A DNA stretch of 64,000 nucleotides from Pseudomonadota bacterium (lineage in GTDB: Bacteria; Pseudomonadota; Alphaproteobacteria; SP197): positions 25,904-89,903 of the forward strand of contig JBCCIS010000003.1 in NCBI GenBank assembly GCA_039028155.1. Direction: 5' to 3'. The position numbers and the translations under genes were made by a program. Positions 28,845-49,645 of the stretch are shown here, one piece after another. A model generated the notes under the pieces. It saw nothing but the letters and a program-made list of their open reading frames with translations. It was not told the DNA's origin and ran no database searches. How positions within the stretch are numbered: position 1 is the stretch's first letter; each line of letters opens with the position of its first letter.

Positions 28845-29597
28845 CTAGATAACCACCGGGAACAGCAGGCAGAGGTAACAGGAAAGCGCCAGGGCGGGCC
28901 CGAAGGGAAAGACGCGGCCACGCCCGGCACCGCGCCAGAGAAGCGCCAGGACGATGCCGGCCAGGCCGCCCAACACGAGAAACGCCGGGATCAGCGGCAA
29001 GCCGATCCATAAGCCCGCCACCGCCATCAGCTTGACGTCGCCGAGGCCCAGGCCCTCGCGAGCGCGGAACCGGCGGTAGACCCAGCGCAACGCCATACCA
29101 GCGCCGCCCAGGACAAGTGCCGCGGCAAGGCCCATGGCGCCCGCGCCAATTGGATCGCCCAGCGCCACCCACCAACCCGGCGCCAGAACGACGGCCGCGA
29201 TCTGCAGGGGATCCGGCAGGTAGCCGTGCTCCAGGTCGATCACCGCCATCATGATCAGGATAAGACCGAGCGCCGCCAGCATGGGGAACGCGGGTACGAG
29301 ACCATAATCGAGCCAAGCGGCCAGAAAGGCGATCGCCGTCGTGATCTCGATGGCGATATAGCGCAGGCCGATCGCCGCGCCGCAGTGGCGGCAGTGACCG
29401 CGCGACGACAACCAGGACAAAACCGGAACAAGATCCCGGACCGAAAGCGGCGCCCCACAGGACGAACATCGTGAACGCTGTTCACGAAAGCTCTCGCCGC
29501 GCGGCAGCCGATGGGTCAACATGGTTGCGAAACTGCCAAAAACTAGCCCTAAAAGGGTAATCAATACCCCTTCCGAGAGTGCCCCGAGCACGGTCAT
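28845..29597 (-). CDS. pilD: Type IV prepilin leader peptidase (A24 family, PilD/GspO-like)
   Basis: N-terminal Zn-binding CSSCG...CRHCG tetracysteine domain, then the A24 peptidase membrane domain. Start at the internal ATG (MTVLGALSEGVL). Confidence 0.8.
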   Translation of the reverse strand: MTVLGALSEGVLITLLGLVFGSFATMLTHRLPRGESFREQRSRCSSCGAPLSVRDLVPVLSWLSSRGHCRHCGAAIGLRYIAIEITTAIAFLAAWLDYGLVPAFPMLAALGLILIMMAVIDLEHGYLPDPLQIAAVVLAPGWWVALGDPIGAGAMGLAAALVLGGAGMALRWVYRRFRAREGLGLGDVKLMAVAGLWIGLPLIPAFLVLGGLAGIVLALLWRGAGRGRVFPFGPALALSCYLCLLFPVVI

Positions 29598-29724
29598 CGC
29601 TCGGCCGTATGGCTGGCCGGCGTGGCGAAAATGCATCGCCCGACAACAGAAAGAATCAAGAGTCCCAACGGTTTGGTTCCAAATCCTTAAGTTCTAATGT
29701 ATATGGAATCGGTAACGGATTGTA

Positions 29725-31476
29725 TTGGGGTTCGGGGTGGTGTCGTTCAGAACGGATACCTACACCAAGTCACTGCCGCGCGCACGGTTGGCGCTGGCGG
29801 CGATCGCGGTTGCGTCGCTTCTGATCGCCTCGTGCGACAAACCGCTGGGCGACTTTCACGATCCCGAAGCCGGCCTCACCAAGGCCGATTACGAAGACAT
29901 TATTGGCACCTCGGCGACCCCGCCGGACGCCAGCGGCGCGTTGGCGCCGGAAGCGCCGCCGATCCCGGATCTGATGCCGGCCCTGGCCGTACCGGTGCCA
30001 GCGACGGGTCCGGAAAGCCGGCTCGTCTCGATCTCCGTCGTCGACACGGTGCCGATCCGCGACGTGCTGATCGAGCTGGCCCGCGCCGCCGAGGTCGACC
30101 TGGAACTCGATCCCGCGATCGAAGGCGGCATCATCTTCAGTGCCCAGAACCGACCGTTCATCGAGGTCATCGACCGCATCTCGGCCATGGCCAACCTGCG
30201 CTACGAATACAAGGGCGGTATCCTGAGGATCGAGATCGACCGGCCCTATCACGCGACCTACAAGGTCGAGCATCTGGCCGCCGCGCGCAGCGCAACGAGT
30301 TCGGTCGATATCTTCACCGACGTCTTCTCCTCGGTCGGCGACAACGCGATCAGCAACGGCTCTGCCGCCCGCATCGAGCAGGTCACAGAGAACGACTTCT
30401 ATGGCGAACTGGCGACCAACGTGCGCCAGATCCTGACCAATTCCTCGCCAGCCGAAGAAATCGAGGAAATCCAGCTTGCTTCGGTCCAACCGACCCTGGA
30501 CGGCGAGGGCGAGGAAGTGACCGACGCGGTCGCCGAGCCGGTCGAGGACTTCTCCATCAATCGCCAAAGCGGGCTGCTCTCCGTCTTCGCGACCCAGCGC
30601 CAGCACCGCCTGGTGCAGGACTACCTGCGCGAGCTGATCATCCGCTCGTCGTCCCAGATCGTGGTCGAGGCCAAGGTGTTGGAAGTCCAGCTGAGCGATC
30701 AGTTCCGCAGCGGCGTCGACTGGAGCGTGGTGGTCGGCATGCTGGGCGGCCAGGCGGGTTTCCTGTTGAACACCGGCCTTGCCAACATCCCCAACAATTC
30801 GCCGGATCTGGCTCAACTCAGCTTTGTTGGCGGCGATGTCGACGCGGTCGTCAACCTGATCAGCGAGTTCGGCACCACGCGCACGCTCGCCAATCCGCGC
30901 CTATCGATCACCAACAACGAGCCGGCGGTTCTGAAGGTCGCCCAGAACCAGGTCTATTTCACCCTGGAGTTCGAAACCAACACGACCCAGGGCGTCGTGA
31001 CCGAGACGGTCGAAAGCACGGTCAACACGGTGCCGATCGGTCTGGTCATGCTGGTGCAGCCGTCGATCGATCTGGACACCGACCGCGTGACGCTGAGTTT
31101 GCGCCCGACACTGTCCAACATTGTCGAATTCGTTGACGATCCCGCGGTCTCGATCGAATCCAACAACACGGTTGTCTCGCAGGTCCCGGTGGTCGAGGTA
31201 CGCGAGTTCGACTCCATCGTCACGGCGCGATCGGGCGAGGTCATCATCCTGGGCGGCCTGATGCAGGAGACCGCGCAGAACAACGAGGCCGGCCTGCCCG
31301 GCTTCCAGGACATCCCGTGGGTCGGCAACGCCTTCAAGTCGAATGACGACGATCGCGAGGTCCGCGAACTCGTCATCTTCCTGCGCGCGACCATCGTGCC
31401 CCAGCCGGTGCCGGCGCCTGCGGATATCGATCTCTACAACACCTTCGCCATCGACCCGCGACCGCTCACATTCTAG
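29725..31476 (+). CDS. Type II/IV secretion system secretin (GspD/PilQ/MshL-like), lipoprotein
   Basis: C-terminal secretin domain (VTARSGEVIILGGLMQET...LPGFQDIPWVGNAFKS...LVIFLRATIV) and N-terminal N0/N1-like domains. Lipobox LLIASC near the N-terminus. First codon TTG; GTG alternatives at 29737 and 29740. Confidence 0.8.
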   Translation: MGFGVVSFRTDTYTKSLPRARLALAAIAVASLLIASCDKPLGDFHDPEAGLTKADYEDIIGTSATPPDASGALAPEAPPIPDLMPALAVPVPATGPESRLVSISVVDTVPIRDVLIELARAAEVDLELDPAIEGGIIFSAQNRPFIEVIDRISAMANLRYEYKGGILRIEIDRPYHATYKVEHLAAARSATSSVDIFTDVFSSVGDNAISNGSAARIEQVTENDFYGELATNVRQILTNSSPAEEIEEIQLASVQPTLDGEGEEVTDAVAEPVEDFSINRQSGLLSVFATQRQHRLVQDYLRELIIRSSSQIVVEAKVLEVQLSDQFRSGVDWSVVVGMLGGQAGFLLNTGLANIPNNSPDLAQLSFVGGDVDAVVNLISEFGTTRTLANPRLSITNNEPAVLKVAQNQVYFTLEFETNTTQGVVTETVESTVNTVPIGLVMLVQPSIDLDTDRVTLSLRPTLSNIVEFVDDPAVSIESNNTVVSQVPVVEVREFDSIVTARSGEVIILGGLMQETAQNNEAGLPGFQDIPWVGNAFKSNDDDREVRELVIFLRATIVPQPVPAPADIDLYNTFAIDPRPLTF

Positions 31477-31567: not shown

Positions 31568-32335
31568 TTGGTTACGACGTTCCGCTATATCGTGCTGACA
31601 GCCGTGCGCGACCGGTTGCTGATCGGTGTGGCGGTCGCGCTCGTCTTGGCGGCCCTGCTTGGCGCTTTCCTGGGCGACGCGACGGCGCTGGAACAGGGCC
31701 AGATGTCGCTGGCCTATGCCGGTTTCATGACGCGGCTGATCCTGGCCATGGGCCTGATCCTTTTTGTCTGTTTTCACGTGCAGCGCAGCTACGATAACCG
31801 CGAAATCGATCTTATGCTGTCGCGGCCGATCTCGCGTGCCCAGTTCGTCATCATCTACTGGCTCGGCTTTTCCGGCGTCGCTGTGCTGCTGGCGCTGCTC
31901 GCGACCGTCGTGCTGCCGATTGCCGCGTTGCCACAAGGCGCCGGCCTTCTTCTGTGGATGATCAGCCTGATGTTGGAGTCCCTGCTGGTCGTCGCGGTCA
32001 GCCTCTTCTTCGCGCTGACGCTGAAGAGCGCGGTCGCCTCGGTGATGGCGAGTTTCGGTTTCTATCTCCTGGCGCGCATGACCGGCCTGTTGGTCAACAT
32101 CGCCGAGGCCGACTGGTCCATCTTGCAAGAGACCACGCTCGGCGCGTTCATCGGCTATGCCGTCTATGTGTTCGGCTTCATCATGCCGCGGCTCGACCTG
32201 TTCGGCCAGACCTGGTGGCTCAACTATGGCATGCCGGCCGAGCTGCCGGCCGGCCTGATTGTCGCGCAGGCGGCGATCTATACGGCGCTGCTGCTGGCCG
32301 CGACGATTTTCGACTTCCGGCGGCGGCGGTTCTGA
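31568..32335 (+). CDS. ABC-2 type transporter permease-like membrane protein
   Basis: Six predicted TM helices and the ABC-2 signature-like segment NREIDLMLSRPISRAQFVIIYWLG. TTG start, no ATG until residue 46. Its TGA is directly adjacent to the next ATG (TGATGG). Confidence 0.55.
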   Translation: MVTTFRYIVLTAVRDRLLIGVAVALVLAALLGAFLGDATALEQGQMSLAYAGFMTRLILAMGLILFVCFHVQRSYDNREIDLMLSRPISRAQFVIIYWLGFSGVAVLLALLATVVLPIAALPQGAGLLLWMISLMLESLLVVAVSLFFALTLKSAVASVMASFGFYLLARMTGLLVNIAEADWSILQETTLGAFIGYAVYVFGFIMPRLDLFGQTWWLNYGMPAELPAGLIVAQAAIYTALLLAATIFDFRRRRF

Positions 32336-33066
32336 TGGCCGGCCAACGCCTGACGCTCGCCCTCATCGCGCTGCTGCTGGCCGCGCAGGTGGCGCTCGCG
32401 ACCCAGACCATCGCGCGCCACGACATCGACGACACGCTCGCCATGCCGCCACCACGCGAGGTCGCGAGCGTGCTTGCGCTGGGCGACGACCAGTTCTTTT
32501 TCCGTCATGGCGTCTTGGAGATCACCCATGCCGGCGTCGCCGACGGCGACACCATCTATCTGCGCGATTTCGACTATGACGTGCTGGTCGCCTGGCTGTT
32601 CCTGCTCGACGAGCTCGACCCGCGTTCCGGCGCCGTGCCCTTCTTGGCGGCCTACTGGTATGGCCGCACGCCAGTGGTCGCCGATGCCGCCTTGATCGTC
32701 GACTATCTGGAAGCCCGCGCGCTCGCCGACCCGGAAACCGGTTGGCGGTGGCTGGTCGAGGCGGTTTATCTGGCGCGCTACCGGCTTAACGATCTTGACC
32801 GCGCGCTGGCGCTCGCCGAGCTCGCGGCCGACGGCAAAATCGAGAATGCGCCGTTCTACGTGCAGCATCTGCCGGCCTTCATCCAGCTCGATCTCGGCGA
32901 ACGCGACGCCGCGCTCGTGCTGCTGCGCGCGCTCTTGGAAGAGAACCCAGATCTGCCGGAAGACGAGCTCAATCTGTTATTCTTCATGATCGACCGGATC
33001 GAACGCGACGGGGGTGACGGCATGACCGAGCCCGGCGCCGCATCCGGCGAAACGGACGGAACATGA
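32336..33066 (+). CDS. Secreted all-helical (TPR-like) hypothetical protein
   Basis: ATG immediately after the upstream stop. Signal peptide MAGQRLTLALIALLLAAQVALA. The track merges it into a 370-aa read-through ORF. Confidence 0.6.
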
Positions 33067-34163
33067 ACGACATTACACTCTCGCTCTCGCAGATCCTGCA
33101 GCTCGTCGGCGTGGTGCAATGCGTTTACGTCATCGCGCTGACGCTGGTCCGCACCGACGATTACCGTTTCGCCGCCCTGCCGGTCATGCTGTTCGCCGCG
33201 ATCGCCGTCGGTTTCGGCGTCCAGCTATTGATGACCTTGACGGAGATCGGCGAAAGCCCGTTCTTGAACGGCGTCTATCTGTTCGTAGAAACGGCGGTGC
33301 CGCCCTTGATGTACCTGATGGTCATCGAGTTGGCGAAGCGGCGCATTCCCGCCTCGCCCCATTGGCTGATCCTGGGCCTGCCGCTGCTGGCGGTGCCGGC
33401 GATCAATGTCGCCGTCCAGGCCGAGACCATCTGCCTGGGCGCCGATGGCAGCTTCTGCGTCGAGCCCTACCCGATGTTCTCGCTGTTCCGGGTTATCGCC
33501 GGCGTCGCCATTCTGCTGTTGCTGGTCGCGGTGATCTCGCGCGATCTCAAGTCGCTCCTGACCCAGAGCATGGGCAAGGAGAAGTACTGGATCGTCATCG
33601 CGTTGATCGGCGCCATCATCTCGTTGCTGGCGGTGAACCTGTTGAGCGCCTTCGAGGTGCTGAACGAGAGCGAGGCGGTGTTCGTCACGACCGTCCTGGA
33701 ACTGACGCTGATCTACCTGCTGATCTCATCCCTGTTCCGGGTCTATGGCGGCGCCGTCACGATCCGCACCAGCCGTGACAAGGGGCGTGACGGCGAGCGT
33801 GAACCGCTCAACGACGAGGAAATCAAGCTGGTCGAGCGCATCAACGAGCTGATGACCCTGGACAAGGTCTATCAGGAGGCCTCCTACAGCCGCAAAGATC
33901 TGGCCCAGGAGCTCGCCATCGCCGAACACCAGCTGTCGCGGATCATCAACACCGGCTTCGCCATGAGCTTCAGCGACCTCATCAACAACCATCGGGTCGA
34001 GGAAGCGAAGTACCTGCTGCGCACCACCGACGAGCCGGTCAGCTCGATCGCCTTTGATGTCGGCTTCAACAGCCTGGCCTCGTTCAACCGCGTGTTTCGC
34101 AAGGTGACCGATCAGACGCCGACCGCGTTTCGCCAGAACGGCGGCGAGGCGCCGAGCCAATAG
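33063..34163 (+). CDS. Membrane-integrated AraC-family transcriptional regulator (N-terminal polytopic membrane domain + C-terminal AraC HTH)
   Basis: About 230 aa with six or seven hydrophobic helices, then a classic AraC HTH (YSRKDLAQELAIAEHQLSRIINTGFAMSFSDLINNHRVEEAKYLLRTTDEPVSSIAFDVGFNSLASFNRVFRK). ATGA overlap with the upstream gene. Confidence 0.75.
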   Translation: MNDITLSLSQILQLVGVVQCVYVIALTLVRTDDYRFAALPVMLFAAIAVGFGVQLLMTLTEIGESPFLNGVYLFVETAVPPLMYLMVIELAKRRIPASPHWLILGLPLLAVPAINVAVQAETICLGADGSFCVEPYPMFSLFRVIAGVAILLLLVAVISRDLKSLLTQSMGKEKYWIVIALIGAIISLLAVNLLSAFEVLNESEAVFVTTVLELTLIYLLISSLFRVYGGAVTIRTSRDKGRDGEREPLNDEEIKLVERINELMTLDKVYQEASYSRKDLAQELAIAEHQLSRIINTGFAMSFSDLINNHRVEEAKYLLRTTDEPVSSIAFDVGFNSLASFNRVFRKVTDQTPTAFRQNGGEAPSQ

Positions 34164-34522
34164 CCCGTTTCGGCTGTCGGACCCCGCCGCCGGCCTACCC
34201 TGTCGATCGTAGTAGAATCTTCGGTTCTTCCCCTAAGGTCTTGATTCAATATCGAATCTTGTGCGCTGCAGCATGAGTTTTCAGCGACTGGCAGGGTCAG
34301 TTTAGAGCTAGAACTCCTCAATCTGTAAATCTGACACCGCACAACGCCAGATAGCGAAGACCCCCCAAAGGATTAGCCCTAAAGAGTAGGTTCGAGGAGA
34401 ACGAGAGCGTTGCGTCTGTGCCGTTTTGGGACAGTCGCAAGTCGAGCAAGGCGCGATCGACTTCGTATCACAGTGAAACAGCCGGCAAGCCGGCACAGAG
34501 ACCAACGCGAGGATCCGAAACC

Positions 34523-35185
34523 ATGCAGGGTAACGTGGGTAACGACAGACACAGCTCCGAACGCGGCTTTACGCTGGTCGAGCTTTCCATCGTTCTTGTC
34601 ATCATCGGGCTTTTGATCGGCGCCGTCCTGAAGGGCCAGGAGTTGATCGAAAGCGCGCGGCTGAAGTCGCTGATGACGCAGATGAACAGCTACAAGACGG
34701 CGACCCAGATCTTCAAGGATCGTTATGGCTCGCTGCCCGGCGATTTCGACGAGGCGACGACCGTGCTGAACGCCTCGGCCAACGGCGACGGCGACGGCCT
34801 GATCGACGGCAACGGTGGCAACGGCGAAGGCCCGCTGTTTTTCGAGCATTTGGTTCGCGCTGAGCTGATCTCCGGTGTTTCGGTCAACGATCCCATCCCC
34901 GACAGCAAAGCCGGCAACGGCGAAGTCCAGGCCGACAACGACGACGTCAACCAGGGCTCGCAGGACACCAACTTCTTCCGCGCCGGCGGCCTGAACGGCG
35001 TCGCCAGCACCCGCGATATCCTGAGCGGCGCCCAGGCGGGCGAGCTGGACAACAATTTCGACGACGGCAGCGGTATCACGGGCGATATCCAGTCCGAGGG
35101 CGGCAATGACTGCCGCACCAATGCCGGCGTCCACAACTTCACCGATGGCGACGTCGCCTGCGTCTTCTTCGTGAAAATCGAATAG
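34523..35185 (+). CDS. Type IV prepilin / pseudopilin (class III signal peptide)
   Basis: MQGNVGNDRHSSERG|FTLVELSIVLVIIGLLIGAV is a prepilin peptidase cleavage motif (G/FTLxE) followed by a hydrophobic N-methylation helix. Gly/Asp-rich C-terminus with a Cys pair. RBS GAGGAT. Confidence 0.8.
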   Translation: MQGNVGNDRHSSERGFTLVELSIVLVIIGLLIGAVLKGQELIESARLKSLMTQMNSYKTATQIFKDRYGSLPGDFDEATTVLNASANGDGDGLIDGNGGNGEGPLFFEHLVRAELISGVSVNDPIPDSKAGNGEVQADNDDVNQGSQDTNFFRAGGLNGVASTRDILSGAQAGELDNNFDDGSGITGDIQSEGGNDCRTNAGVHNFTDGDVACVFFVKIE

Positions 35186-35543: not shown

Positions 35544-36920
35544 GTGAGCATCCTCTACAAGGCATTGTCGAAAGCCGCGCGCGAGAACGCCGAGCAGGCG
35601 GATGGCGCGCCCCTGGTGCTCGGCAACGACCTCGGCGACGACCCCGGAACCGCCTTCGACGACGCGACCTACCGCGAGCCGCGCCGGCGCCCCTGGGCGC
35701 TGCTGGGTGTGGCCGGCCTCGTTGTCGTGGCCTGCATCGGCGGCTACGTCTATTTGACCTCGCTGGAAGATGACGATGTCGTGGTTAACACCGGTGGCGA
35801 GATTGTCGATTTCTCCAAGCAGAACCAGGCTGCGGCCGGGGCCGACGAACCCGACGTCATTGCGGCTGATCCGTCGAACGAGACGTCAGACGACGCTCTT
35901 GTCGAAACGGTCGAGGTGGTCGAAGTCGTCGAAACCGCCGATACCGTCGAGCCGGTCGAACTCGCCGAACCGGATGTGACGACCGAAACCCAGACGTCGA
36001 CCGCGCTCGATATCGTTCCGGCCGCCTCGCTGGATGTCGTCAACGGCAGCGGGACCGCGACCGACGTCGCCGAAATCAGCGAAACGGCGGAAACGACGAC
36101 GAGCGAGAACGCCGGCGACGTAACCGCGGCAGTCAATGGCGAGACCATCGAGGAGACGCTGGCACGCCTCAGCAACGAACGCGGCGGCGACGACCTCACC
36201 ACGCCCATCGACGTCGACCGCACGCCCGAAGCGGCCATGGAAGCTGCGACCACCGGCGACGGCGCCATCACCGTGTCGTCCGTAGAGACGGCGGCCACCG
36301 AAACCACCCCCGAAACCACAGTCGAGTTCACCATCGATGCGGAGGGCTCCGGCAACCGGCAGAAGTTCGAGGCGGCCTATGCCGCGCTTCAAGCGGGCAA
36401 CGCGGAAGCCGCCATGGATCTCTACATGGATGTCTTGCGGGAAGAGCCGGACAACCAGTTCGCCCTCTTCGGCCTGGCTTCCACCCTGCAGCGCATGGGC
36501 TGGTTGGGCGAGGCGCGCGCGACCTATGAGGAGCTCTTGGCGATCGACCCGAACAATCGCGGCGCGCTGACCAACATGATGGCCCTGATCGCCCAGGAGG
36601 CGCCCGACCAGGCACTGGCGAACCTGCAGCGGCTCTATGAGATCAATCCGGGGTTCAGTCCGATCCCCGCCCAGATCGGCCTGCTCTACGCCGACATGGG
36701 CGACTATGGCGAGGCGGTGCGCAATCTGAGTCTCGCCATCGACATGGAGCCGGACAACATGAACTACGTCTACAACCTCGCGATCATTCACGACCGGCTC
36801 GGCCAGCACACCGAGGCGCAGGCGCTCTACGAGCAGGTGATCGAGTTTGCCCAGTATCGCGATGTCAGCGTGCCCGTTGCCGCCATCCGCGAGCGCGTGT
36901 CCTACCTGAAACGATTGTAA
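35544..36920 (+). CDS. TPR-repeat pilus biogenesis protein (MshN/PilF-like) with N-terminal membrane anchor and acidic low-complexity spacer
   Basis: GTG start. TM helice WALLGVAGLVVVACIGGYVYL. A long acidic spacer rich in Glu, Thr, Ala and Val. C-terminal TPR repeats (...AAMDLYMDVLREEPDNQFALFGLASTLQRMGWLGEARATYEELLAIDPNN...). Confidence 0.65.
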   Translation: MSILYKALSKAARENAEQADGAPLVLGNDLGDDPGTAFDDATYREPRRRPWALLGVAGLVVVACIGGYVYLTSLEDDDVVVNTGGEIVDFSKQNQAAAGADEPDVIAADPSNETSDDALVETVEVVEVVETADTVEPVELAEPDVTTETQTSTALDIVPAASLDVVNGSGTATDVAEISETAETTTSENAGDVTAAVNGETIEETLARLSNERGGDDLTTPIDVDRTPEAAMEAATTGDGAITVSSVETAATETTPETTVEFTIDAEGSGNRQKFEAAYAALQAGNAEAAMDLYMDVLREEPDNQFALFGLASTLQRMGWLGEARATYEELLAIDPNNRGALTNMMALIAQEAPDQALANLQRLYEINPGFSPIPAQIGLLYADMGDYGEAVRNLSLAIDMEPDNMNYVYNLAIIHDRLGQHTEAQALYEQVIEFAQYRDVSVPVAAIRERVSYLKRL

Positions 36921-36934
36921 GCGGAGATCAGGCG

Positions 36935-37801
36935 ATGCCTTTCTTGAACCATTTCGGCTTGAAGGAACATCCGTTCTCGCTGACACCCAATCCGGCGCTT
37001 TTCTTCGGCGGACGCCTGCATCGCCCGATCCTGGAAATGCTGAGCTTTGCCCTGAAGCGCGGCGATGGCGTCTTGACCGTGGTCGGCGATGTCGGCACCG
37101 GCAAGACCATGCTGTGCCGCCTGCTGCTGCAGGTTCTGGACGGCGAGGCGGCGCTGGCCTACCTGCATGCGCCGCTCTCCGACGATACGGACATCGCTCG
37201 CGACGTCGCGCGCGAGTTCGGTCTTGATGTCGGCCCACACGATGACGCCTTCCACATCCTGAACCGCTTCCTGCTGGAACAGCATAGCGCCGGCCGCCGC
37301 GCCGTCCTGGTCATTGACGAAGCCCAGTCGCTTGGCCGCCCGGGGCTGGAGACGATCCGTCTGCTGTCGAACCTGGAGACCGAATACAGCAAACTTCTGC
37401 AGACCGTCATGTTCGGCCAGCCCGAGCTCGACGCCCTGCTGCAGCAGCACGCGCTGCGCCAGCTCAACCAGCGCATCGCCTTCCGGTTCGAGACCCGCGC
37501 GCTCACCGCGCGTGATGCCTCGCGTTACGTGCAGCACCGTGTCCACCGCTGTTCGATCAACGGAGACCCGCGCGAGATGTTCACCAAGAGCGCGCTTGCC
37601 ATGCTGGCGCGACACAGCCGGGGCGTGCCGCGCGTCATCAACATTCTGGCCGACAAGGCGATGCTGGCGGCCTATGCGGAAAACGTCACGACCGTGCGCC
37701 GCCGCCACATGGTGGCCGCCATCGACGACTCACCGTCGATCGCCCAGAAGCTTGCCTTCTTCCGCCGCTGGAACGTGGCGCGGCTGGCCGGCGTCGGCTG
37801 A
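36935..37801 (+). CDS. ExeA/GspA/MshM-like AAA ATPase
   Basis: MPFLNHFGLKEHPFSLTPNPALFFGG...VVGDVGTGKTMLCRLLL...VIDEAQSL is the ExeA-type AAA domain, with Walker A and the conserved N-terminus. Confidence 0.8.
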   Translation: MPFLNHFGLKEHPFSLTPNPALFFGGRLHRPILEMLSFALKRGDGVLTVVGDVGTGKTMLCRLLLQVLDGEAALAYLHAPLSDDTDIARDVAREFGLDVGPHDDAFHILNRFLLEQHSAGRRAVLVIDEAQSLGRPGLETIRLLSNLETEYSKLLQTVMFGQPELDALLQQHALRQLNQRIAFRFETRALTARDASRYVQHRVHRCSINGDPREMFTKSALAMLARHSRGVPRVINILADKAMLAAYAENVTTVRRRHMVAAIDDSPSIAQKLAFFRRWNVARLAGVG

Positions 37802-37803
37802 TC

Positions 37804-38961
37804 ATGGCCGGCGCCAACCAGATCGACCAACTGCTCGCCTATATCGTCAAGAGCGGTGCGTCGGATCTGCATCTCTCATCCGGCCGCGCGCCCGCCATGC
37901 GCGTCGACGGCGACATCGCCGCCATGACCGATCAGGAATTCACCGCCGATCAGGTGCGCGTGCTGGTGACCGAGATCATGTCGGACGACCAGAAAGCGGC
38001 TTACGACGAAGACCTGGAACTGGACTTCGCCTATCAGGCCGATCACAGCCTCGGCCGCTTCCGCGTTAACGCGTTCAACACGGCGCAAGGCCCCGCGGCC
38101 GTGCTGCGTACCATTCCGACCGACGTCCCAACACTCTCGGATCTCGCCGCGCCCAGCCTGTTCGCCAAGCTCGCCTCGCTGGAACACGGCCTGATCCTGG
38201 TGACCGGACCCACCGGCAGCGGCAAGTCGACGACACTCGCCGCGATAATCGACCACATCAACACCAACAGCAAAAAACACATCCTGACCGTCGAGGACCC
38301 AATCGAATTCGTGCACCCGCCCAAGCAGTCGTTGGTCAACCAGCGCGAGGTCGGGCGCGACACATTGTCCTTCCACCGTGCCCTCAAAAGCGCGTTGCGC
38401 GAGGACCCCGACGTCATCCTGGTCGGCGAGATGCGCGACCTCGAAACCATTTCGCTCGCGCTGACGGCGGCCGAGACCGGCCATCTGGTGCTCGGCACAT
38501 TGCACACGACCTCGGCGCCCAAGACCATGGACCGCATCATCGATGTCTTCCCGGCCGGCGATAAGGACATGGTCCGCGCCATGCTGTCGGAGTCGATCCA
38601 GGCGGTGGTCAGTCAGATTCTGCTGAAGCGTCTCGACGGCGGCCGCGTCGCCGTCCACGAGATCATGACCGGCACGCCCGCGGTCAGGAACCTGATCCGC
38701 GAGAACAAGATCCCGCAGATCGTTTCGATGATTCAAACCGGCCAGCGCCACGGCATGGTCACCATGAAGGACGCGGTGCAGGCTCTGGTCGACAACAATG
38801 TCGTCGACGCCGGCGAACTCGAACGCTTCGAGGCGATCTCCGGCGAGTCCGCCGAGGCGAACGAGTCGACGGTCAACGACAACGGCGCCGGCCAACAGTC
38901 GACGCCGCAGGCGCCACCGCCGGAGCCCAACAAGAAAAGCCTCCTGCGCGGCCGTTTCTGA
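37804..38961 (+). CDS. pilT: Type IV pilus retraction ATPase PilT/PilU
   Basis: GLILVTGPTGSGKSTT Walker A. VEDPIEF, the Asp box and REDPDVILVGEMRD motifs. AIRNLIRE-like helix. About 385 aa. Confidence 0.85.
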   Translation: MAGANQIDQLLAYIVKSGASDLHLSSGRAPAMRVDGDIAAMTDQEFTADQVRVLVTEIMSDDQKAAYDEDLELDFAYQADHSLGRFRVNAFNTAQGPAAVLRTIPTDVPTLSDLAAPSLFAKLASLEHGLILVTGPTGSGKSTTLAAIIDHINTNSKKHILTVEDPIEFVHPPKQSLVNQREVGRDTLSFHRALKSALREDPDVILVGEMRDLETISLALTAAETGHLVLGTLHTTSAPKTMDRIIDVFPAGDKDMVRAMLSESIQAVVSQILLKRLDGGRVAVHEIMTGTPAVRNLIRENKIPQIVSMIQTGQRHGMVTMKDAVQALVDNNVVDAGELERFEAISGESAEANESTVNDNGAGQQSTPQAPPPEPNKKSLLRGRF

Positions 38962-38973
38962 CGGGTCGCCTGA

Positions 38974-39738
38974 CTAGCGCGCCGACTCCGGTTCGGCGTC
39001 TGCGTGATCGATAGCGTCCAGAAAGGCGCGTTCCAGTGACCCGCCGCCATGGCGCTCGCGCAAACTTGTGGGGTCGCCATGATAGAGGATGCGCCGGTCG
39101 CTCAAGACAGCGACGGCATCGCAGATCTCGTCGATGTCGGACAGGATGTGCGAGCTGAAAAAGACCGACCCGCCGGCCTCGCGATAGGCAATCAGACGGT
39201 CCTTCAGAAGGATCCGCGCGCGTGGATCCAGGCCCGTCATCGGTTCGTCGAGGACCAGCAACGGGCGTTCGCTCATCAGCGTCGCCATCAAGCCGGCCTT
39301 CTGCATCATGCCCTTCGAATAGGTCGCGACGCTGCGGTTAAGCGCGTCGGGATCGAGCGCCAGGCCTTCCGCGCTCGATGCCAACGTCGCGCGATCGGCC
39401 TTGATGCCGAAATAGGCGAGGCTCAACGTAACGAACTCGCGGCCCTTCAGCGTGCGTGAGACATTGAGGTTTTCCGGCAGGTAAGCGAGCGCGTTACGCG
39501 CGGCGGCGTCGCGGCAGTCGCGGCCAAAAAGCCGGATTGTACCGGCCGCCGGTTCGATCAGGTTCAGCATCGTCTTGATGAAGGTCGTCTTGCCGACGCC
39601 GTTCAGGCCGATCAGCCCCAGGATCTCGCCGCGCCCGACCGTCAGGCCGACGTTCTCCAGCACGGTGCGCTCACCATAGGCAACGCTCAACGTCTCGGCT
39701 TCAAGTGCCGGTCCCTCGCCATCGTCGCGCCCAACCAT
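38974..39738 (-). CDS. ABC transporter ATP-binding protein (ABC-2/CcmA-like subfamily)
   Basis: GLNGVGKTT Walker A, the ABC signature YSKGMMQKAGL, and Walker B LLVLDEPMTGLD. Start at the internal ATG; the track ORF reads through the upstream hairpin. Confidence 0.8.
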   Translation of the reverse strand: MVGRDDGEGPALEAETLSVAYGERTVLENVGLTVGRGEILGLIGLNGVGKTTFIKTMLNLIEPAAGTIRLFGRDCRDAAARNALAYLPENLNVSRTLKGREFVTLSLAYFGIKADRATLASSAEGLALDPDALNRSVATYSKGMMQKAGLMATLMSERPLLVLDEPMTGLDPRARILLKDRLIAYREAGGSVFFSSHILSDIDEICDAVAVLSDRRILYHGDPTSLRERHGGGSLERAFLDAIDHADAEPESAR

Positions 39739-39875: not shown

Positions 39876-40616
39876 CTAGTCCTGTGCCTGCAAGGCTCTT
39901 TCCAGATCGCGCAATTGGTCCTGTTGCGCCGGGCTCAAGCTCAGATCCTCCGGCGTCGCCAGTGCTTCGACATCGATCTCGCCGCCGCCGTCCGCGATGG
40001 TCCCACCCTGCTCTTCGGGCGGCCTCAAAATCGCAAGCGCGGAGACGTCGACCACGTCGTCGGTGTCGGCGAGATAGATCTGATGGGGCCGCAGTGTAAA
40101 GACGCGGCGGTTCTGCGGCTGCGACGCATCCGGCATCCAGACCAGGTCGACATAGTCCGGCCCGATCGCGTTGACGCGCAGGTCCGCCGGCATGGTGTCG
40201 GGTGTCACGTGCTCGCTGTTCAGCCACAACGACCAGCGCGTCGGACTGAAGTAGAGCAAGGCATCCAGGCGAAAGTCGCGCAGGGCGACCGGTGCCACGG
40301 TCACTGTCTCGCCGGTCTCCTGCACATCGGCGAGGCCGTCGGCGCCGGTGACGGCCAGGCGCACGGCGGCATCGATCAAGGCCGCCTCGTGTTCCGTCAG
40401 CATCAGGTTGTCGCGGGCGATGATGCGTAGGACGTCGTCGTCGCTCAGGCTGCTGTCGACCTGGAGCTGCTGGACCGCGGGCAGGTCGATGGCGGGTGTA
40501 GTCGCTTCATCGCCGGAGTCCTCGCCGTCTTGTGCCAGCCCCCAGCCCGCGATAACCACGGCCGACAACACGACGGCGCCGAGCCATGTGCCAGTCTTTC
40601 GAACAATTCGGCCCAT
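39876..40616 (-). CDS. Periplasmic pilus-assembly-associated hypothetical protein (PilP/MshK-position)
   Basis: ATGA-coupled to the upstream PilO-like gene. N-terminal signal-anchor. No recognisable motifs; assignment is positional. Confidence 0.45.
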   Translation of the reverse strand: MGRIVRKTGTWLGAVVLSAVVIAGWGLAQDGEDSGDEATTPAIDLPAVQQLQVDSSLSDDDVLRIIARDNLMLTEHEAALIDAAVRLAVTGADGLADVQETGETVTVAPVALRDFRLDALLYFSPTRWSLWLNSEHVTPDTMPADLRVNAIGPDYVDLVWMPDASQPQNRRVFTLRPHQIYLADTDDVVDVSALAILRPPEEQGGTIADGGGEIDVEALATPEDLSLSPAQQDQLRDLERALQAQD

Positions 40617-41308
40617 CACGACTCGTCCCAATCGTCGTCGTCCCAGTCGTCGTCATCATCGTCGTTACCGGCGACAACAACCGCGTTGTTCCAGTTGATC
40701 GATAGCGTTCCCTCGAACACGGCAACCCGTTCGCCGGCGACGATTTGATCCAGCAGCGCGTCGGAGATCTCACTGATGCGCCGGACGTTCATCGCATCGA
40801 CCTGGACCTGACCGTCCAGCCGGCTGATGAACTCGGCGATGAACCCCAGGATCTGCGTGTCCGTCAGGCTGCGGACCTCCAGGCCGATCTCCGTCCGGGT
40901 CAGGAGAAGCTCGGTACCGTCTTCACCTTTAATCTCCTCGACCATCTCGGGCTGGAAGTCATAGCCCAAAAACACCAGGCCGTACTTCGGGCCCAGTTCC
41001 TCAAGCAGTTGCGCGGCGCGCAGGCGGCTTTGCTCGGTCAGAAAGCCGTTGGCGACAATCGTCTCATAGCGCTCACCCTGGGCCTGCACGACGGCGATCT
41101 CGTCTTTCAGTTCGCCGATGCGTTCGTCCAGCTCTTCGATTTCCCATTCCAGGCTGCCAATCTCGATCAGCTTCTGCTGGTTCTGAGCCTCGATCTCGCT
41201 GGAATAGTGCACGACCGCCCCGCCAACGACGATCAGCACGATCACCGGGATGATCAGCCGGCGCGCGATCGCCTTCAGCACCTGCGGCGTCAGATAGTTC
41301 AGGTTCAT
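40616..41308 (-). CDS. PilO/MshJ-like pilus assembly protein (TM + coiled coil) with poly-Asp/Trp C-terminal tail
   Basis: N-terminal TM (IIPVIVLIVVGGAVV). Coiled-coil region. C-terminus ...AGNDDDDDDWDDDDWDES. ATGA overlap with the upstream PilM/N gene. Confidence 0.55.
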   Translation of the reverse strand: MNLNYLTPQVLKAIARRLIIPVIVLIVVGGAVVHYSSEIEAQNQQKLIEIGSLEWEIEELDERIGELKDEIAVVQAQGERYETIVANGFLTEQSRLRAAQLLEELGPKYGLVFLGYDFQPEMVEEIKGEDGTELLLTRTEIGLEVRSLTDTQILGFIAEFISRLDGQVQVDAMNVRRISEISDALLDQIVAGERVAVFEGTLSINWNNAVVVAGNDDDDDDWDDDDWDES

Positions 41309-42873
41309 GACGCCGCCTCGCTCACCTCGATCTCAGGCAGGATAATGCTGATGACGGCGGCGAAGCCGGTGTCGCCGTCCTCCAGCGGATCGCCCAATGC
41401 GACCTGACCGATCAAGTTCTGGTTCGGCAGGATATCGACCGGCGGATCGGTCACGCGCACGTCGAAACCCGGCATGATTTCGGCCATGCGCTCGGCCAGC
41501 GCGTCGGTCACGACAACGGCGTCTTCCATGTCGCCTATGGTGCTGTCCAAATGCACCGTTACCGCCAAGCGGATATCGCGCAGGCCGGCCTCTTCCTCGA
41601 TGACCCAATCGACTTCGTGCACCACGATGTCCGGGCCCAAGGTCGGCCCGATCAAGGCCAGGAACGGCAGGGGTGACGGCGCATGGGTCGACAGCCGGTC
41701 ATAGGTAGCAACGGTGTCGGCGACTTCGGGTGCGGAAACCAGGAAGCTCGCGGCGAGCTTGCCGGTCGCTTCCAGTTCGGCTTCGCGCTCTGTCGCCACC
41801 AACGCGATGTCGCGATGGGCCCGGTCGACTTCCTGGGATTCGACATAGGCCTCGGAAAGACCGAACGTCGCGTAGCCGACGATCAGCGCGATGAAGACGT
41901 AGGCCGCGCGCGTCGTCAGCGCACCCGCGCGTTTTTCGTAAAGCTCCTCGGGCAGCAGCGACAGAACCGGACGTCGTTTCTGTGCGAACACCGCGCCGTG
42001 CAGCACCTCGCCATAGCTATCATCGGGCTCGGCGACGCCCGCAAGCCTCAGCCTTTCGGCCGCATCATGCGGTGTCACCATGCGCAGATGCGACGGCGAC
42101 ATGCCGAGATTAAGCAACTCCTGGCCGATCTCCGGCGTTCCCGCGACGATAATGTCCAGGCCCTGATCGTCGCTATAGGACATGCGCCTCAGATAGCCCA
42201 TGCTCAGCTTGTATTCGCGCTCGATGGTCTGGGCGACTTCGCTGGCGCTGGCATCCGCCGGCGCGCTTTGCGTCAGGCGCGTGAAGACGAACTCGTCGCC
42301 GCGAATGACCACCTGACGGAAACCGCCGGTGCGGTGGCGCGTCACCAGCATGACCCATTGGGGCCGGCTGCCGCGCCGATGAAACAGGTTGGAGAGATTG
42401 CGCGCCAGCGACACCGCTTCCAGTGGCAACAGCGAGAACGGCTTGACCGGGTTGGGCGCCTGATTGATCCAGTCGATCCAGCCGTCAAGCGCCGGTGAGG
42501 CAGGCAAACCGGCCAACAGATAGCGGCGGTCGCGCCGCTCGCCATCCTGGCGGCCCAGGTAGTGCGCGGCCTTTATCTTCGCTTCCGAAAACGCCGTCGC
42601 CAGCCTGCGCTGCAACATGCCGGCGGCGTCGAACATCGAAACCGGCGGAATCGATTCCTTGGCAAACGACTGCTCGAGGACGTCGATCAGCGGGTACACC
42701 GGCGTCGACGGCGAGTCCTTCAGCATCTCCAGCATCTGCGCGCTGTCGCCGGGATCGCTGGTCGGCGCGAAACAGCGGTCGCGCACCCGCGCTCCTGTCA
42801 CGCGCAGCAGCACCGCGCCCTCATCGCCGATGACCAGGACGAACTTGTTCGACGTGCCGAACGAGAAGTTCAT
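41305..42873 (-). CDS. PilM-PilN fusion-type pilus assembly protein (MshI-like)
   Basis: N-terminal actin-like PilM start (FSFGTSNKFVLVIGDEGAVLL). A central TM (AAYVFIALIVGYATFGL) followed by a PilN-like periplasmic region. 522 aa, comparable to MshI. Confidence 0.6.
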   Translation of the reverse strand: MNFSFGTSNKFVLVIGDEGAVLLRVTGARVRDRCFAPTSDPGDSAQMLEMLKDSPSTPVYPLIDVLEQSFAKESIPPVSMFDAAGMLQRRLATAFSEAKIKAAHYLGRQDGERRDRRYLLAGLPASPALDGWIDWINQAPNPVKPFSLLPLEAVSLARNLSNLFHRRGSRPQWVMLVTRHRTGGFRQVVIRGDEFVFTRLTQSAPADASASEVAQTIEREYKLSMGYLRRMSYSDDQGLDIIVAGTPEIGQELLNLGMSPSHLRMVTPHDAAERLRLAGVAEPDDSYGEVLHGAVFAQKRRPVLSLLPEELYEKRAGALTTRAAYVFIALIVGYATFGLSEAYVESQEVDRAHRDIALVATEREAELEATGKLAASFLVSAPEVADTVATYDRLSTHAPSPLPFLALIGPTLGPDIVVHEVDWVIEEEAGLRDIRLAVTVHLDSTIGDMEDAVVVTDALAERMAEIMPGFDVRVTDPPVDILPNQNLIGQVALGDPLEDGDTGFAAVISIILPEIEVSEAAS

Positions 42874-42935: not shown

Positions 42936-44147
42936 CTAGAAGCCCATATTGCCGAAGTTGTCGTAGATCGGGCCCAGCACGCCCAGCACGACCCACAAGA
43001 CGATACCGCCGATGGCGATGGTCAGCGCCGGCTCGATCGAGCTGATCATCGACGTCACGGCATTATCGACCTCGCGGTCATAGAAGTAACCGATGTTCTC
43101 CAGCGCTTCATTCAGCTTGCCGGACTCTTCGCCAATCTTGAACATGCGCACCACCAGATGCGGAAACTGGCCGGTCGCCTCCAGGGCCGCCGACAGCGAC
43201 GTACCGCTCTGCACGTTTTGGCGCGCCATGCTGAGCGATTCCGCCAGCATCTTGTTGGCGACGACACGGCGTCCGGTATCGATGCAGTTCAGAACGTCGA
43301 TGCCGCTTTGGAATGTCAGGGCGAAGAAGTGGGCGAAGCGCGCCAGCGCCAGCTTCTTCAAGACCGGGCCGACGCCTGGAATACGGAACTTCATGGCGTC
43401 GAACCAATAGGAGAAACCCTCGAAGAAACGCAGCAGAAAGGTGACGGTCAAGAAACCGATGACCGGCACGGCAAGCACGACCCACCAGTAGGAAGCGAAG
43501 AAGTTCGACGTCGCGATCAACGCGCGGGTCATGAACGGCAGCTCGCCGGACGTCGAGATCAGGAATTCCGACACCTGCGGTACGACGAACACCATCATCA
43601 TGAAGATGACGCCGAAAACCATGATCATCATGAACATGGGATAACGCGTCGCCTTCTTGATCTTCGACGTCATCTCGCCTTGCCACTTCAGGTGGTCGGC
43701 CAGATGGCCGAACGCGTTGGAGAGATTGCCGCTCTGTTCACCGGCGGCGACAACACCGGTGAAGACCGCGTTGAAGACCTTCGGGTGCACCTCCAGCGCG
43801 CGGCTCAGATACATGCCGTCGCTGACGTTCCGAACGACTTCCGACAGGATATCTTGCAGGCGCCCGGAATCGGTCGCCTCGCGCACATCGTTCAGCGCAT
43901 CCAGCAACGGCACGCCGGCGCGGTCCAGTTGCTGCAGATGAATGCACATCTGCACCATGTCGTCGTTGGTGATTTTCTTCTGCAGAAAGGTCGAGACCTT
44001 GCTCTGGCGCACCTCGCCATGGCGGATCAGGTCCAGACCCATGACGCGAAGGTTCGACTCAAGGTCCATGACGTTGACCGCGTTCAACGTGCCCGTGACG
44101 TTGCGGCCGCTCTGGTTCATGGCGCGGTACTTGTAGAGCGGCATCAA
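42936..44147 (-). CDS. Type IV pilus/T2SS inner-membrane platform protein (PilC/GspF/MshG family)
   Basis: Two T2SSF repeats and a conserved C-terminus (...IEPALTIAIGGIVLWVVLGVLGPIYD...). 4-bp overlap with the upstream ATPase gene. Confidence 0.85.
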   Translation of the reverse strand: MMPLYKYRAMNQSGRNVTGTLNAVNVMDLESNLRVMGLDLIRHGEVRQSKVSTFLQKKITNDDMVQMCIHLQQLDRAGVPLLDALNDVREATDSGRLQDILSEVVRNVSDGMYLSRALEVHPKVFNAVFTGVVAAGEQSGNLSNAFGHLADHLKWQGEMTSKIKKATRYPMFMMIMVFGVIFMMMVFVVPQVSEFLISTSGELPFMTRALIATSNFFASYWWVVLAVPVIGFLTVTFLLRFFEGFSYWFDAMKFRIPGVGPVLKKLALARFAHFFALTFQSGIDVLNCIDTGRRVVANKMLAESLSMARQNVQSGTSLSAALEATGQFPHLVVRMFKIGEESGKLNEALENIGYFYDREVDNAVTSMISSIEPALTIAIGGIVLWVVLGVLGPIYDNFGNMGF

Positions 44148-46210: not shown

Positions 46211-46398
46211 TCCTCACCTCTAGCGCCTGATGGATGCTGTCGGCCGACCCCTCGGCACAAGACAACAGAACGTCACCGGTCTCCCGTGGCGTTTTCAGGC
46301 GTCCCCAACTGCTTTCTTCCCGCGTATTTTAGTACACAAGCTGTTAGATTCATATTCAGATAATGCTCAACCCGTCCTATAAGTCGGATTAATGTGAA

Positions 46399-46480
46399 CT
46401 GTGTTTATGACGCACAATCAAGCCGGTCTGTGGCGACCGTCACAACTATATCCGTCGTTCTCTTGATTTGATAAACACAG
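46399..46480. promoter_or_regulatory. 10-bp inverted repeat CTGTGTTTAT ... ATAAACACAG (62-bp spacing) in the AT-rich divergent promoter region between the mshE-like operon and pilin gene 2
   Basis: Seen directly in the 290-bp intergenic region, which is markedly AT-richer than the flanks. Confidence 0.35.
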
Positions 46481-46503
46481 TGGATTAGCGGCACTGGCCA
46501 AAT

Positions 46504-47259
46504 ATGACGTCTGATTCAACACAGAATCCGTTCCAATCGACCGAAAAGGGCTTCACCCTGATCGAAATGGCGATTGTGATCGCCATTATCGGCGTTTTGG
46601 TCGCCATGTTGGCGCCGATGCTGGGCAATATCGCGGAAAACAACCGAACGGAACTGACCGTTCAGCGCATGGACCAAATCGAGAACGCCATGGTCGTTTT
46701 CCTGCGCCAGAACGGCCGCCTGCCATGTCCGGCCGCCCCCAACGGCGCGCCCCTAGGCGATGAACGCGCCAGCTGCAACACCGGCAACAACAACGACGGT
46801 ATCGTGCCGTTCCGCAGTCTTGGGCTGGCCGAGGCCGACGTGCGCGACGGCTACGGCAACTATTACACCTATCATGTCGCCGAGGACTACGCCGACAGCA
46901 GTTTGCCCACGGTGATGACCGATCCCGGCGGCTTCTGTTTCGTCGCCTCCGGCGAGCCGAACGGCGATCTGGATATCGAAGACATCAACGGCACCAACGT
47001 GACCGGCCAGGACATCGCCTTCACGCTGATCAGCCATGGCAAGAACGGTTATGGCCGATACGACCCGCCGGGCAACGGCAAGGTCAACGCCAATGGCGGC
47101 GGCACCTTCGAGGACGAGAACAACGATTCCGACGCCGACTTCGTCGACGGCATCCGTCTAACCGACGATGCGACGGACGGCCCGCTCGATGACGCGGTCA
47201 TCTGGAAAACGCGCGACGGGCTGGCCGGCCAGGCCATTGAGTTCGGCTGTTCGCCGTAG
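46504..47259 (+). CDS. Type IV prepilin (class III signal; large 251-aa pilin, candidate major subunit)
   Basis: MTSDSTQNPFQSTEKG|FTLIEMAIVIAIIGVLVAMLAP is a leader plus N-methyl-Phe helix. C-terminal Cys pair (C...GCSP). Confidence 0.8.
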   Translation: MTSDSTQNPFQSTEKGFTLIEMAIVIAIIGVLVAMLAPMLGNIAENNRTELTVQRMDQIENAMVVFLRQNGRLPCPAAPNGAPLGDERASCNTGNNNDGIVPFRSLGLAEADVRDGYGNYYTYHVAEDYADSSLPTVMTDPGGFCFVASGEPNGDLDIEDINGTNVTGQDIAFTLISHGKNGYGRYDPPGNGKVNANGGGTFEDENNDSDADFVDGIRLTDDATDGPLDDAVIWKTRDGLAGQAIEFGCSP

Positions 47260-47379
47260 CCATAACTAGGCTTACTGAACCCACAACTTGCCAGTGCTCG
47301 AACTCAACCATAGGGTGTTGGGCAAGAGTTGCGGAGTCTACCCTTCGCTACGTTGAAGACAGCATTACGATATCATCTC

Positions 47380-47892: not shown

Positions 47893-47962
47893 TGGCTTAA
47901 GCACTCTCCGACGCCAGTGCATCAACATGTACAGACGACCTCTTTCAACCCGATCTTCTTCG

Positions 47963-48013
47963 AACTCGTGACGACCTAGCCGGCCTGGCGATCGAGTTCG
48001 GCTGTTCGCCCTA
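47963..48013 (+). repeat. Imperfect direct repeat of the last ~17 codons of pilin gene 2 (relic 3' end), bounding the AT-rich insert
   Basis: CGTGACGACCTAGCCGGCCTGGCGATCGAGTTCGGCTGTTCGCCCTAG matches ACGCGCGACGGGCTGGCCGGCCAGGCCATTGAGTTCGGCTGTTCGCCGTAG at 47208-47259 (about 38/45 identities over the central alignable 45 nt). The two translate as RDDLAGLAIEFGCSP* and RDGLAGQAIEFGCSP*. Confidence 0.6.
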
Positions 48014-49439: not shown

Positions 49440-49645
49440 AGCCCTCCTCACGAACCGTAGTCCCGCTGCGTCTTAAACTAGAGCAGATTGGACATGTGTT
49501 CAATCTTTTGGACCCCGCGTAGGACGCCCATCGACTCTACGTATCATCAGTAATCATGGATTTGGCGACGAACATACAAATCGTGGCAACTCCGCCGGAG
49601 GACGTCGTCCAACAGCAGTTTTCCTTGTCGTCTCAACGCTTTATC

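Follow-up and report, generated by a model that had tools for sequence, protein, structure and literature searches.

What the PilGHI transporter does in the biogenesis of type IV pili has been an open question since 1998, and this transporter is usually treated as specific to Myxococcus. The pilA-pilG-pilH-pilI genes of M. xanthus encode a pilin and an ATP-binding cassette (ABC) exporter, consisting of an accessory factor, an ATPase and a permease, which is essential for S-motility and pili (PMC3546991, PMC3724824). Deletion mutants of pilG, pilH or pilI lack pili and behave like a pilA mutant, which is without pilins and pili (PMC3724824), and PilI has just over 250 residues (PMC5544727). A comparative study from 2018 described the transport role of PilGHI as short of experimental support (PMC6060248). 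Here, we analyzed a stretch of 64,000 nucleotides (nt) from the genome of an uncultured alphaproteobacterium (GenBank assembly GCA_039028155.1, contig JBCCIS010000003.1, positions 25,904 to 89,903; hereafter, the window), which contains a type IV pilus cluster. Within this cluster, three consecutive genes, designated A, B and C, encode a permease, an accessory protein and a membrane-integrated AraC regulator, and an ABC ATPase is encoded at the other edge.

Previously, a census of 50,302 transmembrane transcription regulators found that HTH_18 is their commonest DNA-binding domain, present in 16,725 (33%), that 27% of these regulators have three or more transmembrane (TM) segments, and that many depend on an adjacent co-component (PMC10269533). 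Since HTH_18 is the commonest such domain, the view taken in the first-pass annotation of this DNA, which was made from the sequence without database searches, that membrane-bound AraC regulators are rare was wrong. The same annotation offered no precedent for the transporter genes, and PilGHI is one, i.e. an ABC transporter in a type IV pilus cluster (PMC3546991, PMC3724824).

Our results indicate that the module is real, conserved and not annotated, and they bore out the suggestion that it lies outside the canonical gene lists of the mannose-sensitive hemagglutinin (MSHA) pilus and other type IV pili. We propose, with a probability of roughly 60%, that A, B and the ATPase make up a pilus-dedicated ABC machine with the composition of PilGHI, and that C is an optional membrane regulator.

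Permease, accessory protein and a separately encoded ATPase

The three genes lie on the plus strand, at 31568-32335 (A; TTG start, 255 amino acids), 32335-33066 (B; ATG start, 243 amino acids) and 33063-34163 (C; ATG start, 366 amino acids). The ATG of B and the TGA stop of A have one base in common (TGATG), and the stop codon of B overlaps the ATG of C by four bases (ATGA). The N-terminus of A, MVTTFRYIVLTA, matches the starts of its homologues in the alignment, which backs the TTG start. Upstream of A lies the secretin gene (29725-31476, plus strand; PF00263 Secretin, E 3.6e-32), and directly downstream of C lies a prepilin gene (34523-35185, plus strand; N_methyl motif, E 4.3e-7). The coordinates, the overlaps and this position between the secretin gene and a pilin gene had been given correctly in the first-pass annotation. 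A generic promoter and terminator scan of the secretin-A-B-C stretch found no terminator-like or promoter-like signal between the genes, and the triad appears to be co-transcribed. A, B and C form the distal portion of the conserved operon secretin-A-B-(C), and the type IV pilus cluster to which this operon belongs is MSH-like. Stop/start overlaps are ordinary in operons, and it is the conserved synteny that lifts the arrangement above chance.

Gene A encodes a predicted 6-TM ABC-2-type permease of the NosY/PmtD-like class. We base this name on family-level Pfam matches, a match to PmtD, profile comparison by hhalign and six hydrophobic segments in the hydropathy profile of the 255 residues. 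By itself, A gave a weak match to ABC2_membrane_4 (PF12730; E 3e-3, 17.9 bits against a cut-off of 27), and since it falls below the Pfam cut-off, the earlier label "ABC-2-like" was a fair hedge. ABC2_membrane_2 (PF12679) was matched by 16 of 38 members of the A family (best E 3e-6), and the A-family profile matched the solved PmtD ABC-2 permease (E 2e-4). A was also aligned over its full length with a sister permease group (hhalign probability 98.4%, E 8.5e-15), and the sister permeases used in this comparison exceed the PF12679 threshold (53.2 bits). Many A-family members are annotated by the Joint Genome Institute (JGI) as NosY-type permeases. At the N-terminus, where permeases of this kind have a cytoplasmic amphipathic segment, A carries the conserved motif TAxRD, and one of its cytoplasmic loops reads SRPISR. 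The NCBIfam search gave no name for A or B, and both families are barely covered by Pfam. As a working transporter, A would operate with a separate ATPase of the DrrA/NodI/NosF subfamily, judging from its genome context.

The B protein is predicted to be bitopic, with an N-terminal TM anchor and an acidic, all-helical periplasmic domain that resembles tetratricopeptide repeats (TPRs); this structure was predicted from an alignment of 10 sequences only. B had earlier been taken for a secreted protein, and a membrane-anchored protein fits better, as in most B homologues the N-terminal hydrophobic helix is not followed by an AxA cleavage site. B is homologous to the protein, here called X, that is encoded in pilin-permease-X-ATPase clusters (hhalign probability 97.1%, E 4.8e-11), and it would be the accessory subunit of the transporter, forming its periplasmic arm. 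A ToxS/TcpH-like co-component of C was rejected as the primary role of B, because B is universal and C is not, and because B homologues exist in clusters without C.

The conservation of the operon was assessed with an alignment of A, which was used to scan one genome per species and gave 158 relatives, with 80 loci kept. Open reading frames (ORFs) in the loci were labelled with hidden Markov models (HMMs) built from the window proteins, and removal of duplicates gave 84 species-level loci, which share only 40-50% protein identity. All named loci are alphaproteobacterial, with labels that include Rickettsiales, Rhodospirillales, Azospirillaceae, Magnetospirillaceae and Midichloriaceae, together with the cultured Telmatospirillum siberiense. 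Our results showed that the gene immediately upstream of A is the secretin gene in 79 of the 83 assessable loci (median gap 22 nt; 100 nt or less in 76 of 79), and that B directly follows A in all 81 assessable loci (median gap 2 nt; 30 nt or less in 78 of 81). C directly follows B in 39 loci, with a median gap of 30 nt and a gap of 100 nt or less in 34 of them. A pilin gene comes after C or B in L001, L005, L006, L008, L013, L052 and L084, and in many genomes the unit peptidase-secretin-A-B(-C) is set apart from all other pilus genes. The triad is thus tied to the pilus, and the notion that it might occur widely in genomes without pilus genes fails, given the secretin gene upstream in 79 of 83 loci.

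These data also bear on the simplest alternative, namely that an unrelated housekeeping transporter and regulator sit inside the pilus cluster of this genome by an accident of gene order. In favor of such an accident, compact operons commonly have stop/start overlaps, and A of the window alone stays under the Pfam threshold. However, secretin-A-B recurs with near-zero gaps in ~80 species-level genomes at 40-50% protein identity, and an orthologue of the ATPase recurs inside pilus clusters. The synteny survey refutes this explanation, and we accord it next to no likelihood.

The triad is real and recurrent as a unit, as had been proposed, but it is not obligate: C is missing in about half of the loci, and the core consists of secretin-A-B plus the ATPase. 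Where more than 1.5 kb of sequence follows B or C, 38 loci carry C and 34 lack it, or ~35 versus 34 when three duplicate records are subtracted. Genes after B in the C-less loci are unrelated housekeeping genes, and an alternative conserved partner that replaces C was rejected on this ground. The C-positive loci are spread over most deep branches of the A family, suggesting that the A-B-C linkage is old and has been lost repeatedly. Six divergent contexts of C were examined: five are secretin-A-B-C, often followed by a pilin gene, and in one (L007) C stands alone. This lone homologue (32% identity; 10001-11083 of L007) lies between rpmB and a uracil-DNA glycosylase gene, with no A, B or secretin gene within 10 kb, and the regulator can therefore exist unlinked. 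At another locus (L003, 1833-6393 and 6753-11140; C protein 42% identical), secretin-A-B-C adjoins DotM_C and TraG-D_C genes of a Dot/Icm-like type IV secretion system, and no other pilus gene was found within 10 kb of it.

The ABC ATPase is encoded on the minus strand at 38974-39738, as the last gene of a minus-strand pilus operon that also contains genes u1, u2 and u3 for bitopic/unknown proteins. It is located between pilT and u1 and has no permease gene beside it, so the earlier observation of an ABC-2-type ATPase without an adjoining permease at the other edge of the cluster was real. The protein matches ABC_tran (E 1.9e-24), and its best NCBIfam matches are DrrA, RbbA, NodI and GldA (GldA E 3.5e-33), none of which reaches an equivalog cut-off. 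Its profile matches NosF at 1e-49 and the nucleotide-binding domains of ABCA. It belongs to the DrrA/NodI/NosF/ABCA-type subfamily, which pairs with ABC-2 permeases. The Walker A, signature, Walker B and H-loop motifs are conserved; the signature motif of this group reads TYSKGMxQK, not the canonical LSGGQ, and is invariant in five aligned orthologues.

In L005 (Micavibrio), L008 and L052 (Telmatospirillum), the slot after u1 likewise holds an orthologue of the ATPase (45-54% identity), and other ABC genes in the surveyed loci are only ~25% identical to the window ATPase. A metagenome scan with the alignment of ATPase orthologues yielded 50 loci of at least 5 kb, and labelled pilus-cluster genes were present in 35 of them. 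The order MshE-PilC-u3-u2-u1-ABC recurs in L090-L093, L095, L098, L102 and L052, and in L095, L098 and L102 the full cluster reads MshE-PilC-u3-u2-u1-ABC-TPR-peptidase-PilT-PilT-secretin-A-B-pilin. Elsewhere the ATPase gene lies close to the permease and accessory genes, in the order A-B-pilin-ABC (L103, L106, L113, L117, L119), A-B-ABC (L157) or ABC-A (L137, L140, L146, L148). A more distant group of ATPases is found in the order pilin(s)-permease-X-ATPase, with the permease homologous to A and X homologous to B, and C is absent from these homologous sets of other lineages. Close orthologues of the ATPase (43-50% identity) also occur alone among housekeeping genes in L089 (9983-10702), L096 (3886-4599) and L100 (5907-6617), with no permease gene beside them, which mirrors the permease that stands by the secretin without an ATPase; such solitary copies would be expected if their permease adjoined the secretin at another site of the genome. 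Altogether, the same-slot orthologues, the arrangements in pilus clusters and the homology of the parts indicate that A, B and the ATPase form a three-part pilus-dedicated system, in which the window ATPase is the likely partner of permease A and would energize it.

The seven-helix AraC regulator

C is a predicted transmembrane transcription regulator that carries seven TM segments and an HTH_18 domain in one polypeptide. The possibility that its AraC domain is degenerate had been raised, and we found that it is not. HTH_18 is complete (residues 280-358; E 1.9e-21, profile positions 1-79 of 80), HTH_AraC is matched as well (E 6.9e-9), and thirteen residues of the helix-turn-helix (HTH) are invariant over 58 homologues. 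The modelled HTH superposes on YesN and other AraC-type domains (1.4 Å, TM-score 0.9), and the ToxT structure appears among the Foldseek matches to it. C is a putative sequence-specific DNA-binding transcription regulator.

The loop charges between the seven hydrophobic segments alternate according to the positive-inside rule, which places the N-terminus outside and the HTH inside. The AlphaFold2 model of C is confident (pLDDT 88.6) and contains seven long helices and a short beta-hairpin in the outer loop between TM4 and TM5. Cys124 and Cys132, which lie in this hairpin, are conserved in 51 of 58 C homologues, and a disulfide between them would staple the hairpin, which would be the sole notable periplasmic exposure of a domain whose periplasmic loops have 19 residues or fewer. 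The membrane domain is not a transporter fold, another possibility that had been considered; its predicted fold is a receptor-like 7-TM bundle with helix packing like that of G protein-coupled receptors (GPCRs). Sequence identity with GPCRs is 7-16% at a Foldseek E of ~1e-2, with microbial rhodopsin at a similar score, and residues 1-246 matched no Pfam family at E <0.01, including no 7tm or 7TMR-DISM-type model. Because of this low identity and the lack of a Pfam match, we do not file C as a GPCR and speak of a likeness of fold only.

The 7-TM domain constitutes an unclassified family that is almost confined to this architecture. When residues 1-236 of C were compared exhaustively by phmmer with 1.84 billion representative proteins, only 165 proteins (clusters at 50% identity) were retrieved, nearly all of them 340-400 residues long and thus of the same 7-TM-AraC architecture. 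At the sensitivity of phmmer, no fusion of this domain to a histidine kinase, GGDEF or similar output was found. The sole architectural variant seen in the family is P0258 (500 amino acids), in which a TPR_12/TPR_10 region is added C-terminal to the HTH. The C family has ~280 detectable full-length members, and all named ones are from Alphaproteobacteria; an exact look-up of protein C in the assembly collection returned no record.

The close association of C with A and B raises the possibility that the whole set is mainly a signalling device, in which C has A, B and the ATPase as its co-sensor, as in BceAB-BceS or ToxS/TcpH-ToxR/TcpP, and transporter activity or the load on the pilus or secretin is turned into transcription. 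When linked, C always comes right after A-B (39 loci, median gap 30 nt), periplasmic loops of no more than 19 residues favor sensing within the membrane or through a partner, the 7-TM domain occurs almost nowhere outside this architecture, and an adjacent co-component is needed by many transmembrane regulators (PMC10269533). However, about half of the species keep secretin-A-B without an adjoining C, including the cultured Telmatospirillum, and the homologous permease-X-ATPase sets of other lineages are without any C. Signalling is, therefore, not the core role of A, B and the ATPase and would be at most an added layer; as an account of the entire module we regard it as unlikely. The first-pass annotation had suggested a membrane signalling or export module that might regulate or alter the pilus, of which the tie to the pilus stands, with the ATPase as the likely partner, whereas signalling is reduced to this added layer.

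The surrounding pilus cluster and candidate regulatory DNA

The type IV pilus cluster spans ~28.8 to 49.5 kb of the window, which has a G+C content of ~63%. Ahead of the secretin gene, the minus strand encodes a prepilin peptidase (28845-29636). The best NCBIfam match of the secretin is TIGR02519 pilus_MshL, at 215.8 bits and thus under the cut-off of 250.2. The N-terminal region of the secretin (window 29725-31476) carries the lipobox LLIASC|DKP, and the protein is, therefore, probably a lipoprotein. After the prepilin gene that follows C, the plus strand encodes an MshN-like TPR protein (35544-36920), an ExeA/MshM-like AAA_22 protein (36935-37801) and PilT (37804-38961). In the MshN-like protein, the TM helix is separated from the TPR domain by an acidic low-complexity stretch of ~200 residues, which is rich in T, E, V, A and D.

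On the minus strand, the operon that ends with the ATPase gene comprises u1 (39876-40631), u2 (40616-41308) and u3 (41305-42873), the PilC/MshG platform protein (42936-44147; T2SSF) and the MshE-type ATPase (44144-46210; T2SSE and MshEN). The far edge of the cluster holds a second prepilin gene (46504-47259) and a very hydrophobic ORF of 188 amino acids (47329-47892) with no Pfam match above threshold. The G+C fraction falls to 0.54 at 46001-48000, as compared to ~0.63 elsewhere, which covers both of these genes, and this part may be a variable or acquired segment of the pilus cluster. A PilR-like sigma-54-dependent response regulator is encoded at the cluster edge (48027-49451, minus strand; Response_reg, Sigma54_activat, HTH_8) and thus provides a second, conventional regulator besides the membrane AraC protein. 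The pilus is best called MSH-like, in view of MshEN plus T2SSE, the MshM/MshN-like proteins and the sub-cut-off match to MshL, with PilT also present.

Two blocks of intergenic DNA were noted by comparison with relatives. The first, CTGTAAATCTGACA at 34323-34336, lies in the region between C and the pilin gene; it is conserved in a relative with 89% identity and partly in a relative with 60% identity. It was rejected as a repeated operator of C, as the window has a single copy and the block is no commoner than chance. The prepilin gene at 34523-35185 is a possible regulatory target of C. The second block, TTGGTTCCA(n)TTA...TATAT, is located in the peptidase-secretin intergenic region (29640-29724), is shared with L001, L011 and L013 (~60% protein identity), and is a possible promoter of secretin-A-B-C. 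It is not spaced as the sigma-54 consensus requires. Sigma-54-like strings upstream of the pilin and secretin genes were also considered and dropped, because their spacing is wrong or they are not conserved.

Proposed mechanism and comparison with known systems

In the mechanism that we propose, A and the ATPase would form an ABC-2 transporter with B as its periplasmic arm, anchored in the inner membrane, and ATP hydrolysis in the cytoplasm would power an action on a component of the pilus, located in the inner membrane or periplasm. Piliation would probably depend on this A-B-ATPase machine. The secretin encoded next door is one candidate target, in view of the alphaproteobacterial gene order and of the TPR-like fold of B, which recalls passive secretin pilotins. 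The pilin is the other, because of the gene order in other lineages and because the pilG, pilH and pilI mutants of M. xanthus resemble the pilA mutant (PMC3724824). Given its minimal periplasmic exposure, C probably senses a ligand or state within the membrane through its helical bundle, or reads the state of A-B; the transporter is a plausible partner, in view of the fixed place of C after A-B. C would then probably adjust pilus transcription by acting on its own operon or on the adjacent pilin gene.

Several observations weigh against this mechanism. Gene order is our only ground for placing A, B and the ATPase in one assembly, and their likeness to PilGHI is drawn from composition and genomic context, with the homology of all three families to the pilin-adjacent permease-X-ATPase sets of other lineages as indirect evidence. 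Four A-B loci have no secretin gene within 4 kb, and in 15 of the 50 ATPase loci of at least 5 kb there is no pilus gene near the ATPase. About half of the loci lack C, which in one case stands alone, so the transporter can do without it, and the link between C and A-B may be only regulatory. Foldseek support for the GPCR-like fold of C is marginal, and no repeated candidate operator for C was found within the window. Finally, xapD (GSU1501) of Geobacter sulfurreducens, which encodes an ABC ATPase near pil genes, was assigned to cell-surface sugar export and not to the assembly of pili, and its product was considered a sugar ABC transporter that electrode biofilms require (PMC5585712).

This last precedent favors another explanation, i.e. 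that the exported substrate is a surface glycan or another molecule unrelated to the pilus, as for Wzm/Wzt, TagGH and Geobacter Xap, with B as a periplasmic adaptor, and that the transporter is only co-located or co-regulated with the pilus genes. ABC-2 permeases and DrrA/NodI-type ATPases are families typical of glycan, lipid and drug exporters, which is also in keeping with such a function. However, the cluster in the window contains no glycosyltransferase or polysaccharide-synthesis gene, and none flanks the ~80 examined secretin-A-B units, whose flanks are housekeeping or pil genes. Moreover, the permease stays with the secretin even where the unit is isolated from all else, and the pilGHI mutants of M. 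xanthus are without pili (PMC3724824). We, therefore, consider export of a non-pilus substrate improbable and favor a PilGHI-type machine dedicated to the pilus.

A bolder joint reading, about which we remain doubtful, would combine these elements. MSH-like pili of a large alphaproteobacterial clade, including lineages labelled Rickettsiales, Micavibrio and Telmatospirillum, would possess an obligatory ATP-powered periplasmic device, in which the permease and ATPase drive the TPR-like B to assemble, gate or clear the secretin or pilin, as an energized counterpart of the passive TPR pilotins. Pilus gene expression would be set by the GPCR-fold 7-TM-AraC protein, which would respond either to the condition of the device or to a membrane ligand. 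If this were true, PilGHI-type transporters would be a widespread and overlooked core subsystem of type IV filaments, and no Myxococcus oddity.

The literature that we searched contains no description of the alphaproteobacterial secretin-A-B-C/ATPase module or of the 7-TM-AraC family. To our knowledge, a conserved component appears to be missing from the models in standard use for detecting pili. The three-part set occurs in two settings, bound to the secretin in ~80 alphaproteobacterial species and bound to the pilin in other lineages, which makes the PilGHI question broadly comparative and testable, with cultivable carriers such as Telmatospirillum siberiense 26-4b1, in which C is missing, and Micavibrio, in which C is present. 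In addition, C adds a compact unclassified family to the transmembrane transcription regulators and bears on how membrane-tethered regulators sense signals and gain access to DNA.

Among described systems, PilGHI (MXAN_5782-5780) resembles A-B-ATPase in its parts: the ABC-2-type permease PilI has ~250 amino acids (255 in A) and is accompanied by an ATPase, PilH, and by an accessory protein without enzymatic function, PilG. In both cases the genes belong to a type IV pilus cluster and adjoin that of a pilin. PilGHI differs in that here the ATPase gene is split from the permease and accessory genes and closes another operon, that the permease and accessory genes are tied to the secretin and not to pilA, and that the pilus is MSH-like (MshL, MshE with MshEN, MshM/N-like) and not a type IVa pilus (T4aP), with a membrane AraC regulator appended. 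NosDFY, GldAFG and PmtCD have the same layout of permease, ATPase and extracytoplasmic partner, with the partner not present in all, whereas B is TPR-like and helical, unlike the NosD beta-helix or GldG, and the contexts of those systems are N2O reductase maturation, gliding and peptide export instead of the pilus.

With respect to regulation, C shares with the HTH_18 transmembrane transcription regulators (PMC10269533) a DNA-binding domain that is tethered to the membrane by TM helices, and differs in having a 7-TM sensor without a Pfam family and in its genomic setting, as about half of the copies examined follow a secretin-permease-accessory unit. Its resemblance to eukaryotic class A GPCRs and to de novo designed GPCR-like folds concerns the fold only, since the output of C is a fused DNA-binding domain and not a G protein. 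Soluble AraC-family regulators control type IVb pili from their own loci, i.e. ToxT for the toxin-coregulated pilus (TCP) and PerA/BfpT for the bundle-forming pilus (BFP). These regulators are cytoplasmic and have soluble ligand-binding N-domains, whereas C is an integral membrane protein with a 7-TM N-domain. Altogether, the module is not categorically new: it is a pilus ABC transporter of the PilGHI type in a new, split arrangement, together with a new family of a common class of regulator.

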